From: a virus
DNA length: 64,000 bases
IMG/VR virus record: IMGVR_UViG_3300021963_000035
Coordinates: 32,001 to 96,000 of that record
Strand: one strand, 5' to 3'
Shown: positions 20,776-32,347 of the stretch, in pieces
How positions within the stretch are numbered: position 1 is the stretch's first letter
Layout: the number at the start of each line of letters is the position of its first letter
Made by a program: the position numbers and the translations under genes
Notes under the pieces: model-generated
What the model was told of the DNA's origin: nothing
Database searches by the model: none
What the model saw: only the letters and a program-made list of their open reading frames with translations

Positions 20776-22005
20776 ATGCGAATAACTGATGTCCTCGTCG
20801 AAACGAATACAAATGCCAAGTCACGATTAGATGAAAAACCAATGGGGATCCTAAGTAAATTAGGAAACAAAGCCCTTTCTAAGTTGGGTAGTGGTCGTGC
20901 TGCTGGTCGCCTAAGCACTGGTGATCTAGCTAACAAAATACACAAAGAATATGATACCTATCTAGGTAAAACAGGACAAGAGCCTAGCAAAGAATCTGTA
21001 TTGGCTTTCCTACAATTCAAGGGATATCCTACGCAAGGCGCAGAAAAGATCCTAAACAGTCCCGAAGCACAAGGTCAAGCACCTACTGGACCACTAGGCA
21101 AGGGTAGTCCTGGTGCTGCTCGTCCAGGTGCTGGTAAAGCCAGTGCTGCTCCTGGCGCAGATAAGATTGAACCTAAAATGGGAGATGAGCCGGCAGGTGA
21201 TGCAACAGCTCCAACTGATGGTAAGACAGAACCAACAATGGGGGCAGAAAAACCTAATTTTAGTACAGGTCCTCAACCTACAATGAAAGGTGCAGACGGT
21301 AAAGCATTACCAACAGGTATTCCTAGTACAACAGATCCACTAGCAGCTATACGTAAAAATGCAGGACTACCTCCTGCTGCTGATAAACCTGCTGCACCGG
21401 CAGCAGATGTTCCAGGTGCTCCACCAGGAGATGACAAGAAAGCTGCTGCTAAATCACGTATCGATCAGATGAAAAAAGATAAAGCAGCAGGTACTGGATT
21501 CGGAGGCTTTGTTAAAGGTGCTAAGGCCAAAGGTCTAGTAACGGCAGGTATGTATGAAGCAACAGCTATTCCTAGCTCTGTGATAGACAAAGCTCTGTTA
21601 AAGGCTGCACAAGATGCAGAACGCATGGGTATTGGTCAAGCATTAGGAGATCCAGAAGACGATCAACAAGGTGCTCCAGCTGGTCCTATGAGCAAAGGCG
21701 GTGCAGGTGGTGGACAACAAGGCGGATTCATGGCCGGGGTCAAACAAGGAATGGGTGGCGGCGCAGCAGGTGATGAAGATCCTGCTAAGGTTAAAGGTAG
21801 TTTGAATATAAATCAGCTGTCGTCTCTGATGCCAGGTGTTGACCCTAGACAACTACAACAGGCTGTAGCACGTATTAAAGCTGGTCAAGAGCCAAGTCGT
21901 ATGCATATGCAGACATTGGCACAGGCATTTACTGCTATTGTGCAAGCTGATCCACAGACTACACAACAGATCATGATGCTACTCAAGCGTGTAAGTGCTG
22001 CTTAA
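20776..22005 (+). CDS. Low-complexity Gly/Ala/Pro-rich protein, possible internal head protein
   Basis: 409 aa; TAAATA (20745-20750) and SD AGGA upstream; N-terminus MRITDVLVE resembles a prohead-protease-cleaved leader. Confidence 0.6.
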   Translation: MRITDVLVETNTNAKSRLDEKPMGILSKLGNKALSKLGSGRAAGRLSTGDLANKIHKEYDTYLGKTGQEPSKESVLAFLQFKGYPTQGAEKILNSPEAQGQAPTGPLGKGSPGAARPGAGKASAAPGADKIEPKMGDEPAGDATAPTDGKTEPTMGAEKPNFSTGPQPTMKGADGKALPTGIPSTTDPLAAIRKNAGLPPAADKPAAPAADVPGAPPGDDKKAAAKSRIDQMKKDKAAGTGFGGFVKGAKAKGLVTAGMYEATAIPSSVIDKALLKAAQDAERMGIGQALGDPEDDQQGAPAGPMSKGGAGGGQQGGFMAGVKQGMGGGAAGDEDPAKVKGSLNINQLSSLMPGVDPRQLQQAVARIKAGQEPSRMHMQTLAQAFTAIVQADPQTTQQIMMLLKRVSAA

Positions 22006-22229
22006 AAGAAAGGTAATCCTGTCTTTTTAGTAGTTTCGAGATTTTCTTTTATGATCTCAGCCACGAGTAAACGTTCTTCCTGGCTGAGCATCATGGCTTC
22101 GGAATAGCTCATTCCTCGCATATACCAACACATTTTAAGAACTTCTTTCTTAATACCCAGAGCCTCTTTATCCATCTGCTCTACTATCTGTAAGATCTCC
22201 GACTCTGGTAGTGTTAAGATCTTACGGCG
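22002..22229 (-). CDS. Unlisted reading frame downstream of gp26 (gp51-like position); probable frameshift extension, or a 57 aa gene from ATG 22175
   Basis: Open -1 frame RRKILTLPESEILQIVEQMDKEALGIKKEVLKMCWYMRGMSYSEAMMLSQEERLLVAEIIKENLETTKKTGLPFF*, which fills the gap exactly. Confidence 0.75.
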   Translation of the reverse strand, partial: RRKILTLPESEILQIVEQMDKEALGIKKEVLKMCWYMRGMSYSEAMMLSQEERLLVAEIIKENLETTKKTGLPFF

Positions 22230-23092
22230 AAAAAATTTGATTGATCCATCACGATAGGAGTGCTAAAGAGATGCTCGCATTCTGGACATTTTACTTTTTG
22301 AGGTTTAAGTTCTACTTGTTCTTTAATACCAGTGATGTGTTTGTGTATAGTATCAAATACATTACTTGGAGCATTGTCGATAAATTCTTTAATCATTTTC
22401 TGATCGCTCACAGGACCGGTAGGTGTTTCTATTCTTGCAATGCATCCCGAGATAAGATTAACAGTGTACTCAGTTAATCTAACAAAGCCTTTGCCAAACT
22501 TGTCCATTTTTTCTTCGTCGGTAAGTTTGTCATCTGTGGCAATGTCAACTAATTTTTGCTGTTCTAAAGTTTGTAATTGTGCTTTAGAAAGTTCTTGATA
22601 GCTGTATGGTCTAATGATTACTTTCAATGGATCGACAGCAATGGTATTTTGATATTTAAAATTTTCAAAAGTTTCTAACCAACCTCGTAGATTCATTTCG
22701 TAGTCACTGGTTGTATCACAGCTTGGACAGGTAACAGTAATATCCATGTTCTCACCGTAAGTGGCTAACCTAATAGCAATTAACGCACAGTCTACATCGA
22801 TACTAGGCATCTTCCAAGGATCTAATATAGCTGGCATACAGCTTTTGATAATTTCAACAGTGGTCTGACCGGTTAACAATGCATCCGGAGTTTTAAATAA
22901 CAATTCGTCTTTAGCAGTCATAGCATATACAGGGTACTCGCCGTTAGTACTTCTGTCAATAGTACCCGGAGGATAATACTCGCCGTTTGATGGCAATTTA
23001 ATCCAAATTTTTGGTTGTCTAAAATACTGACTTAGTGGGTTACTATTTGATTTGACTGTTTGTGTAGCTTCATTTGCAACAAAATCTGACAT
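22214..23092 (-). CDS. gp26: Baseplate hub assembly protein / tail chaperone, gp26-like
   Basis: LPS.G, MTAKDELL, D....LIAIR.ATYGE, two CxxC motifs and C-terminal NFF. Confidence 0.8.
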   Translation of the reverse strand: MSDFVANEATQTVKSNSNPLSQYFRQPKIWIKLPSNGEYYPPGTIDRSTNGEYPVYAMTAKDELLFKTPDALLTGQTTVEIIKSCMPAILDPWKMPSIDVDCALIAIRLATYGENMDITVTCPSCDTTSDYEMNLRGWLETFENFKYQNTIAVDPLKVIIRPYSYQELSKAQLQTLEQQKLVDIATDDKLTDEEKMDKFGKGFVRLTEYTVNLISGCIARIETPTGPVSDQKMIKEFIDNAPSNVFDTIHKHITGIKEQVELKPQKVKCPECEHLFSTPIVMDQSNFFAVRS

Positions 23093-23102
23093 TATTATCT
23101 CC

Positions 23103-23128
23103 GATAAATACTATGTAGATTATTTATC
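23103..23128. promoter_or_regulatory. Bidirectional late promoter pair (GATAAATA inverted repeat)
   Basis: GATAAATA 23103-23110 and TATTTATC 23121-23128 between the divergent gp26 and tape measure genes. Confidence 0.75.
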
Positions 23129-23154: not shown

Positions 23155-25794
23155 ATGACTGTACTAGTCGATATTCCTGGAGTTGGTGTTGTAGAAGCTA
23201 GAAACGCTGCTACTGAAGCCACTCTGCGCTCAATTTTAAAAACCATGCAAGGAATCCAGAAAAATACTGGAGGTAGTGGACGCGGAGGTGGTGGCGGAGG
23301 TGGTGGCGGTGCTGCTGAGGGTGCTGCCGGTGCAGGAAAAATGGGCAACGCGGCATTCGCTGCCGGAGTTGCTATAGGAAAATTTGCCACTGCTGTAAAG
23401 AGTACAGCAGCAACGATTGATAGATTAGGCACTAGCATGATCAACACCGTTGATAGTTTAGCTAACATGGGAGATAGTGTAACTGGTGCAGCTGGTGCAT
23501 TAGGCGGACTTGTTAGTAAGATACCGGTGGTGGGCGGAATGATGGCTGCGGCATTTACCGCAGTAGCCAGTGCAGTTGAACATACATCAAAATCATTCCA
23601 GGCGGCAACGGCCAGCGGCGCAACGTTTGGCGGCAGTGTTCAACGATTTGGAGCTGCTGCCAGTGCCGCAGGCATGACAATGGATCAGTTTGGCCAACTC
23701 ATCGGAAAAAATGGTGAGGCAATGATGTTGTTAGGTGGTACTACTGAAGACGGGGCCAAACGTTTTGCTGACATCAGTAGGAATTTAAGAACATCTAGTA
23801 AAGAATTATATAACTTAGGCTACAATACTCAAGATGTAAATGAAGGATTAGCAGCTTATACAAAACTAACAAAATTAACTGGCGGAGCTAGTCAAATGAC
23901 CAATGCTCAGTTAGTATCAGGAACCAAACAATACTTAAAAGAATTAGATTTATTAGCCAAGGTTACTGGAGAGAGCAGAAAAGAAATAGAAGCTAGACAG
24001 GCTAAAATAGCTGCCGATGCCAGAGTACAAGCGGCGGTCGGTGCATTAGATCCAAAAGTAGCAAAAGCATTTAATGATACTATTAGTGTATTGCCTAAAT
24101 CTGTCGATGGAGTTACAACCGATCTTATGACAACATTGGTGGGTATGACTCCCGATGCTCAAGCATTTCAAAGCATGATGAGCAATACCGCAGAAGTTAT
24201 GAAAGAATTAGGCGCTAAAGCGCAAGCCGGTGGAGAACTTACCGATGCCGATAGAGAAAGATTAAGAAACACTCTCATTGCAGAAGCAAAAGCCAAAGAA
24301 AACGAAATTAATAATATTGCAAAATATAATCAAGAATTTGGATTTTTGCAACAGGTAGTAACTGATGCTAAAAATTTAGAAAAGAATGGTATTGCTCGTG
24401 CAAGACAAAATCAAACAGATACACAAAATACAACCGATGGAGTAAATGCTAACCTGGTCAGTATGCAACAGCAATTGGCAGAAATGAGTAATTCATTTCA
24501 ATTATTTTTAGCAGGTCAAGGTAAGTTACTAGGCAGCATGATGGAATTGCTGGGGCAATTCGCTGGGTTTGTTCAAAAATATTTGTTACCAATAATACAA
24601 GATTATCTAGTGCCTGCTCTGAAAGCAGTTGCTAAGTTTATTGTCAACTATGTTATACCTGCATTTGAATGGATGATCAAAACTGTTATCAGTTTAGCTA
24701 AACAGGTATATGAATTCCTTACACCTATTTTTGGATACCTTGCAGACCAGATTAAAAAACATGTGATTCCTGCCCTTCTAGAAATTGTGTTGTTTGTTGA
24801 AAGAAATTGGAAACCAATTCTTGCTGCTTTTGCTACTTTTATTGCTGTGTCCGTTGTGCCTCCATTAATAGCATTTGTCGGAGCACTGGCATCATCTCTT
24901 TTAGCTTTTTTACCATTTGTAGCAGTAGGTGCCGCAGTTGTAGCAGCATTTATTTTAATAGACAAAATAATGGATCGATATGGTATAAAAGTGAATATGT
25001 TAACAGATGCATTCAGCTGGTTAAAGCTTAGGATGGAAGACTGGTGGATGTGGATGAAGGAAGGAGTATATAAATTTTTAAATATAATCCCTGGCATGCG
25101 AGGCGATTATGATGAAAAATTAAAAGAAATTAAACAAGAAAGAGAAGGTAATAAAGAAGAACGTGAAAAAATCGAAAAAAAGCTTACAGCTGATGCTCTA
25201 AAAAATAAAGCAGATGCAGAAGCACGTGACAAAGAAATTGACAAATTAGAAAATAAAAGACGAGAAGATCTTAAAAACGGCAATTACGGAAAGGCATTCG
25301 GCTTACCTTCGATCGAAGAAATCAAACGTATGGGCGGTCCTAACTTTGGAGTTCCTGCATACACAGCCCCCGGCGGGGGTGGTGCAGCTGGCGGCGGTGG
25401 CGGCCCCGAAGATTCTAGAACAGGTGAAGACTATAAAGGCGTCAGCGGTTCAATGAGTCCAGACACATTGGCAAGAATGCAATACGGAAGATTAACTGGA
25501 GCCACGCACGAAGAAACACGTAGAGCTATAGAACGACAAGCAGAAGAAAAGAAAGCTGCCAAAGAAAAAGCAGACAAAGAAGCAGAAGAGAAGAAAAAAG
25601 CAGAGGAAAAAGCCAAAGAAGAAGAAAAGAAAAAAGGCAGTCCTCAGAAGTCTGCTGAAGTATTACTAGCAGAATTAAATACTAAGCTAGATGCAAATAA
25701 TCAATTGATGAAAGATTTGGTTCGATTAAATGACGGACAATTAGTTGCTGTAGAAGGTTTAGGTAATGATGCTTTCCGTTATCCTAGATCTTAA
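23155..25794 (+). CDS. Tape measure protein (gp29-like role)
   Basis: 879 aa Ala/Gly-rich helical protein with hydrophobic segments and periodic aromatic residues; next to the tail chaperone gene. Confidence 0.7.
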   Translation: MTVLVDIPGVGVVEARNAATEATLRSILKTMQGIQKNTGGSGRGGGGGGGGGAAEGAAGAGKMGNAAFAAGVAIGKFATAVKSTAATIDRLGTSMINTVDSLANMGDSVTGAAGALGGLVSKIPVVGGMMAAAFTAVASAVEHTSKSFQAATASGATFGGSVQRFGAAASAAGMTMDQFGQLIGKNGEAMMLLGGTTEDGAKRFADISRNLRTSSKELYNLGYNTQDVNEGLAAYTKLTKLTGGASQMTNAQLVSGTKQYLKELDLLAKVTGESRKEIEARQAKIAADARVQAAVGALDPKVAKAFNDTISVLPKSVDGVTTDLMTTLVGMTPDAQAFQSMMSNTAEVMKELGAKAQAGGELTDADRERLRNTLIAEAKAKENEINNIAKYNQEFGFLQQVVTDAKNLEKNGIARARQNQTDTQNTTDGVNANLVSMQQQLAEMSNSFQLFLAGQGKLLGSMMELLGQFAGFVQKYLLPIIQDYLVPALKAVAKFIVNYVIPAFEWMIKTVISLAKQVYEFLTPIFGYLADQIKKHVIPALLEIVLFVERNWKPILAAFATFIAVSVVPPLIAFVGALASSLLAFLPFVAVGAAVVAAFILIDKIMDRYGIKVNMLTDAFSWLKLRMEDWWMWMKEGVYKFLNIIPGMRGDYDEKLKEIKQEREGNKEEREKIEKKLTADALKNKADAEARDKEIDKLENKRREDLKNGNYGKAFGLPSIEEIKRMGGPNFGVPAYTAPGGGGAAGGGGGPEDSRTGEDYKGVSGSMSPDTLARMQYGRLTGATHEETRRAIERQAEEKKAAKEKADKEAEEKKKAEEKAKEEEKKKGSPQKSAEVLLAELNTKLDANNQLMKDLVRLNDGQLVAVEGLGNDAFRYPRS

Positions 25795-31171: not shown

Positions 31172-32347
31172 ATGTCAGAACTACTCGAGTCACGCTGGCA
31201 GGAAACCAAAGAGGCACTATTAGAAGGCCTACAAGGAACTCGTCGTTCAGTAATGGCCACTACTCTAGAAAATACCCGCAAGTATTTGTCAGAGAGTGCC
31301 ACTGCTGGTGCTACTTCTGCCGGTAATGTCGCAACCCTAAATCGTGTGATCCTTCCAGTGATCAGACGTGTAATGCCAACTGTCATCGCAAATGAACTAG
31401 TTGGTGTACAACCTATGACTGGTCCAGTTGGTCAAATCCATACATTACGTGTTCGTTACAGCGACACTGATGCTGGTGCTGGCGTAGTAGCTGGTGAAGA
31501 AGCATTCAGCCCATTTAAGATTGCTTCTGCATATTCTGGTAATTCTAGCGAAGGAAATCCAAAAGCAGATTCAACTGCTTCTAAGGAAGGCCGCGCTGGT
31601 AACAGAATGAGCATCCAAATCTAGAAGCAAACTGTCGAGGCAAAAACTCGTAAGTTAAGCGCAAGATGGACATTTGAAGCTGCACAAGATGCACAAGCCC
31701 AACAAGGTATTGACATCGAAGCAGAAATCATGGCTGCTCTAGCTCAAGAAATCACAGCTGAAATCGACCAGGAAGTTTTAACTTCACTACGTACCTTAGC
31801 AGGTTCAGCAGTTGAGACTTATAACCAAGCTGCCGTTTCAGGTACTGCTACATTCGTTGGTGACGAACACGCTGCTCTAGCTGTTCAAATCAACCGTGTT
31901 GCTAACTTGATCGCTCAGCGTACACGTCGTGGTGCAGGTAACTACGCAGTTGTTAGCCCATTTGCGTTAACAATTCTTCAGTCTGCAACTACTTCTGCTT
32001 TCGCTCGTACTACAGAAGGTACTTTCGAAGCTCCAACAAACACCAAGTTTGTTGGTACACTAAACAGCGCGATGCGTGTTTATGTTGATGGCTATGCTGC
32101 TGACAGCACAGACATCCTAGTTGGTTACAAAGGTTCTAGCGAATCTGACGCTCCAGCATTCTACTGCCCATACATTCCATTGATGAGCAGCGGTGTTGTG
32201 TTAGATCCTAGCACATTTGAACCAGTAGTTAGCTTTATGACCAGATATGGTTACGTTGAATTAACCAACGTTGCTTCATCTCTAGGTAACGCAGCTGACT
32301 ATCTAGGTAAAGTTGCTATCACTAGCGGTAACGTTAAGTTTAGCTAA
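31172..32347 (+). CDS. gp23: Major capsid protein; one frame of 391 codons interrupted by an in-frame TAG at 31622-31624
   Basis: GVQPMTGPVGQI, KQTVEAKTRKLSARWT.E.AQD, EITAEID, FYCPYIPL, FMTRYG. ORF-track pieces 31172-31624 and 31730-32347 are in the same frame. Confidence 0.95.

Follow-up and report, generated by a model that had tools for sequence, protein, structure and literature searches.

We analysed a 64,000-nucleotide (nt) stretch of viral DNA (IMG/VR record IMGVR_UViG_3300021963_000035, positions 32,001 to 96,000; hereafter the window), which carries on its minus strand a gene of the gp26/gp51 family, whose T4 members gp26 and gp51 we take to be essential baseplate-hub assembly factors. 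Our reading of this locus, drawn from sequence comparison and held at a probability of roughly 0.8, is that the single gene makes a short and a long protein by a programmed -1 ribosomal slip, replacing T4 genes 26 and 51. By this mechanism, most ribosomes would read the 0 frame and stop at the TAA at 22216-22214, yielding a short protein of 292 amino acids (aa). A fraction, while stalled by a stem-loop and possibly helped in this by a pseudoknot, would slip back one base on A_AAT_TTT_TTC and continue in the -1 frame to the TAA at 22004-22002, yielding a long protein of 363 aa. The long protein would consist of the N-terminal 288 residues of the short one followed by a helical tail; the short product would then correspond to T4 gp26 and the long product, with the same domain plus a C-terminal tail, to T4 gp51. 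An initial annotation of the window, made from its letters alone, had proposed that gp26 is fused by a -1 shift to a downstream frame, and this proposal is strongly supported by an invariant slip site, a frame-specific switch in constraint, the lack of start codons in the downstream frame, a covarying stem and natural in-frame fusions. Of the canonical features of -1 frameshifting, a phased heptamer, an evolutionarily kept downstream structure and a start-less -1 frame under coding selection are present. That the shift is ribosomal we infer from the comparison. No report of a gp26/gp51 frameshift was found in the literature searched, subscription journals being outside the search.

The 0-frame open reading frame (ORF) of the gene occupies positions 22214..23092 on the minus strand, as given by the ORF list and its translation. 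Its 292-aa product matches PF12322 (T4_baseplate) in a Pfam search with an E-value of 2e-20, scoring 73.6 bits against a cut-off of 24.5 and covering profile positions 15-218 of 219, and it also matches PHROG 150 'baseplate hub' (E 7e-24). Residues C122, C125, C269 and C272, which form two CxxC pairs, are invariant. On the minus strand, the 3′ end of the gene reads TCA AAT TTT TTC GCC GTA AGA TCT TAA, and the two overlapping, in-phase slippery heptamers described in the initial annotation can both be read there: A_AAT_TTT (22232..22238), 6 nt upstream of the stem, and T_TTT_TTC (22229..22235), which is kept in all lineages. Phased heptamers of the form XXXYYYZ number 62 in the window's 29 ORFs of at least 150 aa, and only the two in gp26 precede a -1 frame that is open for at least 50 codons. 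An upstream Shine-Dalgarno-like stimulator was not seen at the window locus.

The extension encoded by the -1 frame spans 22002..22235 on the minus strand and comprises 77 codons counted from the two Phe codons. After the slip site, the frame is open for 75-76 codons and ends at the TAA at 22004-22002, so the reading frames bear out both the open frame and the 363-aa length of the fusion that had been proposed, which would be 71 residues longer than the short product. An AF2 model of the extension has a predicted local distance difference test score (pLDDT) of 90, with helices at residues 2-8, 11-39, 44-48 and 52-72. Searches of Pfam and PHROG with the extension gave no match, nor did a hidden Markov model of the window-type extension, whether run on the hub region of T4 or on its entire genome.

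The selective history of the site was read from 80 IMG/VR loci with 52-68% amino-acid identity to the window gp26, 59 of which are distinct after removal of duplicates. Alignment of the homologous gp26 3′ ends shows that the slippery site is conserved and the -1 frame open. The sequence TTTTTTCG is kept in all 59 distinct relatives and the full 11-base block AAATTTTTTCG in 58 of them. The gene as a whole is saturated with synonymous change (mean diversity 0.49 among same-residue pairs), while the Ser, Asn, Phe and Phe codons of the slip site show synonymous diversities of 0.00-0.04, the last three being at 0.00. The minor Phe codon TTC is fixed at the slip site in 61/61 sequences, and the first base of A_AAT_TTT is A in 58/59 relatives, even though it occupies the wobble position of a codon that varies among Ser, Ala and Thr. 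Upstream of the site, entropy is highest at third positions of the 0 frame (1.26 bits), and downstream it is highest at third positions of the -1 frame (1.31-1.40 bits), and the slip site is the exact point at which codon-position variability passes from the 0 to the -1 frame. The base directly after TTTTTTCG illustrates this switch: in the -1 frame it varies freely as the third base of an invariant Arg codon (CGN), and in the 0 frame the same base is a second position, where the changes alter Ala to Gly, Val or Asp. The 0-frame tail past the slip site is short and unconserved, and the -1 peptide, starting with the first residue past that site, can be aligned gap-free.

Downstream of the slip site lies a putative stimulatory stem-loop (22190..22225, minus strand), consisting of a 9-base-pair (bp) stem and an 18-nt loop. 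The arm GTAAGATCT (22225-22217) pairs perfectly with AGATCTTAC (22198-22190), the stem is present in the minimum-free-energy fold, and the 5′ arm is immediately followed by the TAA (22216-22214) that ends gp26. The initial annotation had placed a perfect 9-bp stem 6 nt after the first heptamer; it is there, and it covaries in relatives. The stem is paired in 89.8% of alignment cells, with a covariation score reached by 0/500 shuffles, and its register is best at slide 0, far above any slid register. Pair 40-67 is GC in 38 relatives, AU in 19, GU in 2 and unpaired in none; both positions are synonymous in the -1 frame, and about 6 independent coordinated switches are needed on the gp26 tree. 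Pair 37-70 switches from U-A to C-G in separate clades. The suggested pseudoknot (22157..22208, minus strand), in which the loop motif CCAGAG (22208-22203) could pair with CTCTGG (22162-22157), stands as a complementarity and is paired in 72.9% of cells as compared with 62.6% in shuffles (0/500), again with the best register at slide 0. Its support is moderate, weaker than that of the stem, and it is not needed for the frameshift itself. Across 140 unique loci, the 50 nt past the heptamer have a mean folding energy of -11.0 kcal/mol, as compared with -6.25 for windows inside gp26, and many lineages carry different long stems starting 5-7 nt after T_TTT_TTC. No Rfam family matches the frameshift site.

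The arrangement reaches well beyond the close relatives. About 200 distinct loci from T4-related phages have the slip site and, in the same frame relation to it, an intact -1 ORF. T_TTT_TT(C/T) at a Phe-Phe motif, followed by a -1 ORF of 60-90 codons, occurs in 17 records of cultured phages: Atu_ph07, Phosso, Paride (PA5oct-like), 121Q, TH47, RaK2, CBB, GAP32, BF, fHe-Yen9-03, XaC1, XacN1, Xoo-sp13, CM1, RsoM2USA, AsFcp_2 (a strabovirus of the genus Angelvirus) and Melnitz (Kyanoviridae). A joined coding sequence is annotated in 0/17 of these records, which show a gap or a small ORF instead. In loci of the Kyanoviridae type, T_TTT_TTN lies 0-1 codon before the gp26 stop in 62/62 distinct cases, and the -1 ORF of 57-68 codons is complete in 59 and cut by the contig end in 3; the last base of the heptamer varies (A, C, T, G) and the phase is kept. 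The -1 ORF of Melnitz (L192:1260-1466) is annotated 'baseplate hub assembly', and several loci of this type (among L203-L286) lack the Met used as the annotated 'gp51' start. The tiny Kyanoviridae-type 'gp51' ORFs, directly behind the heptamer in the -1 frame, are probably frameshift extensions and not separate genes. A blastn search of the window locus against the phage collection gave no match, and single-sequence scans with the RaK2, Paride and T4 gp26 proteins returned only a few close loci.

Natural fusions of the two frames are also found. In a search of 1.8 billion representative proteins with an extension profile, about 20 clusters of 319-351 aa consist of gp26-family proteins that end in the extension. 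At six such loci, the DNA shows true in-frame fusions with an x-Phe-Arg junction and without a T-run, whereas each of the 74 other, diverged loci from the same query has TTTTTTCG and encodes the extension in the -1 frame. Only loci that need a shift therefore retain the slippery run. By themselves, the in-frame fusions indicate only that the fused protein is viable.

T4 encodes gp26 and gp51 separately, as the initial annotation had stated, and, unexpectedly, does so with two PF12322 genes. Both proteins match the full length of the Pfam profile, gp26 (208 aa; L087:3803-4429, minus strand) with E 9e-64 and gp51 (249 aa; L087:4480-5229, plus strand) through its residues 1-201 with E 4e-52. Because they share this domain and show weak pairwise similarity (BLASTP E 2e-6), the two are divergently transcribed paralogues. 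PF12322 is thus common to gp26, gp51 and the window protein. T4 gp26, like the short product of the window, ends just past the Phe-Phe motif, while gp51 carries a C-terminal tail of about 48 residues beyond the PF12322 domain, and this tail aligns with the Kyanoviridae-type -1 extension (residues 200-244, hhalign E 2.9e-5, probability 74%; BLASTP with the Melnitz extension, E 1e-4). The window-type extension in turn matches the Kyanoviridae type weakly but collinearly (hhalign E 2e-3, probability 13%); both share position and frame, the window type being about 17 residues longer. The gp51-like partner that had been proposed for gp26 would correspond to the roughly 50-residue C-terminal tail of gp51, reached indirectly from the window type, and not to a whole gp51. 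An hhalign comparison of the window gp26 alignment with single T4 sequences gave no useful match.

What sets T4 apart is its pair of divergently transcribed paralogous genes and the absence of a slip site. Its gp26 ends ...EFFELL, with Phe-Phe written TTC TTT, lacks a -1 ORF and precedes gene 25; according to the annotation, a further product, gp26′, is made from an internal in-frame start. The number of family genes follows the same division, with one PF12322 gene in 7/7 complete genomes that carry the cassette (RaK2, Paride, AsFcp_2, Melnitz, Atu_ph07, 121Q and XacN1) and two in 3/3 genomes that do not (T4, Aes012 and DLP3). The viral record that holds the window (148.6 kilobases (kb), about 42% complete) contains one.

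Several observations weigh against a programmed shift or its proposed meaning. Only 3 nt separate T_TTT_TTC from the stem in the window clade, where the stem sits 3 nt closer than elsewhere, and it is the second heptamer, A_AAT_TTT, that restores the 6-nt spacer. RNAalifold gave no consensus structure on the alignment of relatives, and the local fold of the window has a z-score of only -1.3. No direct match between the window-type extension and the gp51 tail was obtained with hhalign, the connection running through the Kyanoviridae type. Searches of the Protein Data Bank (PDB) by Foldseek and by sequence, with both gp26 and the extension, matched no solved chaperone fold. In Atu_ph07, Phosso and 121Q, an ATG overlaps the gp26 stop, and re-initiation may add to or replace shifting in these phages on account of this overlap. 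Finally, the uncultured 484-kb phage LR756508 has a distant gp26 homologue without a slippery site, and its extension-like ORF (L098:1904-2206) overlaps the gp26 end in the +1 frame and has its own ATG, which suggests another solution or a +1 event. Together, the ATG-stop overlaps and the +1 ORF of LR756508 indicate that the extension tail can also be made separately. Atu_ph07 (L001:3019-3045) and Phosso (L002:3020-3050), both with an ATGA overlap, have a strong hairpin 18-20 nt past the heptamer and not at 5-7 nt; these two phages may use re-initiation or another stimulator geometry.

The same long protein could arise if RNA polymerase added one U on the T-run, in which case the slip would be transcriptional and not ribosomal, and both mechanisms would yield an identical product. 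Homopolymers suited to this exist, with T6 in the window, T8 in many Kyanoviridae-type loci and a run of nine T as the slip site of Ralstonia phage RsoM2USA (L097), where the length of the run makes transcriptional slippage a real possibility. A run of six T is short for efficient polymerase slippage, however, and a polymerase stuttering on it would not account for the phase-specific A of A_AAT_TTT that is conserved in the window clade, for a covarying stem at a spacing typical of ribosomal stimulators, or for a heptamer whose last base varies while its phase is kept. We consider transcriptional slippage unlikely as the general explanation, though more plausible for the T8-T9 runs.

Alternatively, the downstream frame could be an independent small gene, a 'gp51', translated from its own start or by coupled re-initiation and never fused to gp26. 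The candidate start in the window is the ATG at 22173..22175 (minus strand), which the ORF finder called as the start of a 57-aa gene; the ATGA overlaps of Atu_ph07 and Phosso, the TAATG overlap of 121Q, the LR756508 homologue and the small separate ORFs annotated in GenBank records point the same way. Against this, the window ATG encodes residue 21 of the extension, in the middle of the confidently predicted helix 11-39, most relatives have Leu there, and 22175 has no suitably spaced Shine-Dalgarno sequence; the ATG is probably an internal Met codon rather than a gene start. Among 67 loci, 22 lack any ATG, GTG or TTG throughout codons 1-32 of the -1 frame, and start codons occur at no conserved position. 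Amino-acid conservation and codon periodicity of the -1 frame already set in at the slip site, ahead of any ATG, and the site is invariant only where the two frames differ, being lost in the in-frame fusions. An independent gene therefore appears very improbable. A chance pattern or a decaying, functionless remnant deserves next to no credence and is already contradicted by the comparative data: T-runs are common in an AT-rich genome (39% GC) and a conserved Phe-Phe motif, with which T4 gp26 (...EFFELL) also ends, favours T-rich codons, but site, frame relation and an intact -1 ORF persist under purifying selection in about 200 distinct loci, T4, which lacks that ORF, writes Phe-Phe as TTC TTT, and of the 62 phased heptamers in the window only the gp26 site has a long -1 ORF. 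Homopolymer sequencing error was considered separately and ruled out, since T6 is identical in many independent assemblies and isolates and the fusions use different codons.

Programmed -1 ribosomal frameshifting invites comparison with known systems. Xu, Hendrix and Duda reportedly described in 2004 (Mol Cell 16:11) that tail assembly chaperone pairs of the lambda G/GT type are produced by a programmed -1 frameshift, and the E/E+E′ pair of phage P2 and gp41/gp42 of Mu are tail assembly chaperones made in the same way. The gp26 locus resembles G/GT in having a phased heptamer that precedes the stop of the upstream ORF by a few codons, a shared N-terminus, a downstream ORF without a conserved start, a role in tail morphogenesis and an arrangement kept despite sequence divergence. 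It differs in that the gp26 family belongs to PF12322, measures about 290 aa, carries two CxxC pairs and has no match to a chaperone Pfam family or fold; in that gp26 does not lie between tail tube and tape measure genes, the location, on the same strand, expected of such a pair; and in that an in-frame fusion or two separate genes take its place in some lineages. The gene annotated as tape measure in Atu_ph07 lies about 15 genes away from gp26. Of the likeness to G/GT claimed at the outset, the architecture of a slip and a short/long pair is retained. The locus is not a member of the G/GT family, given its different gene order and the lack of any detected resemblance to tail assembly chaperones in sequence or fold. 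With no significant Foldseek or PDB match, a structural link to known chaperones could not be made. We infer that the pair may act like G/GT, as assembly chaperones in a fixed ratio.

A second comparison is with Escherichia coli dnaX, whose tau and gamma products depend on a -1 frameshift signal in which about 6 nt separate A_AAA_AAG from a stem-loop further down. Both systems have a bacterial-type heptamer, a spacer of about 6 nt and a stem-loop, and both would give two isoforms of one assembly-related protein. The shifted product of dnaX is the shorter one, whereas that of gp26 would be the longer; the gp26 heptamer is of the U/A type and not A_AAA_AAG, and no Shine-Dalgarno-like stimulator accompanies it.

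The phage that carries the window is T4-related, and gp6-, gp25-, gp5-, gp55-, gp46/47- and gp20-like genes surround the locus. The gp26 gene is divergent from an 879-aa ORF (23155-25794, plus strand) and convergent with a 409-aa ORF; a tail tube gene adjacent to gp26 was not found. The 879-aa product matches PHROG 14121 ('virion structural protein') and nothing else. In RaK2, the homologue of this product carries a tape-measure-like annotation, and the protein-atlas features of the product are similar to those of tape-measure clusters (score 0.94). In CBB, the homologue (CBB_251) was abundant in virions according to published mass spectrometry. That virion proteome also includes CBB_247 but not CBB_250, the homologue of gp26, which is a lead only that the gp26 product may be absent from virions, as a G/GT-type pair would be. 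The neighbour is a probable tape measure protein on the strength of leads; the initial annotation had placed gp26 next to the tape measure gene, and this identity could not be confirmed. The 409-aa ORF (20776-22005, plus strand) converges on the extension and has no Pfam or PHROG match; its stop codon and that of the extension (22002-22004, minus strand) share the palindrome TTAA (22002-22005). The sequence GATAAATA is found at 23121-23128 (minus strand), some 29 nt ahead of the ATG of gp26, and is one mismatch away from the T4 late-promoter consensus, TATAAATA.

To our knowledge, T4-type phages have been treated as an exception among long-tailed phages, with no conserved frameshifted chaperone pair, and what gp26 and gp51 do in hub assembly has stayed vague. 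On a bolder reading, for and against which we regard the odds as even, the gp26/gp51 family would be the T4 superfamily counterpart of G/GT, and a fixed ratio of short to long protein would be a general need of long-tailed phages. Most T4-related lineages would then supply it by a -1 frameshift in one gene, T-even phages would have resolved it into two paralogues (26 and 51), some lineages would have collapsed it into an in-frame fusion, and the tiny 'gp51' genes of cyanophages would be mis-called frameshift extensions. A conserved recoding signal in the family would correct the annotation of hundreds of genomes, for missing long isoforms, for spurious small ORFs and for the cyanophage 'gp51'. 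The signal is directly testable in cultured RaK2, 121Q, PA5oct, Atu_ph07, XacN1 and cyanophages, and T4 genetics can be used as well. For the biology of the family, the recoding signal would tie gp26 to gp51 as the short and the long form of a single protein, and frameshift, in-frame fusion and two genes would form a natural series on why a fixed isoform ratio is needed.

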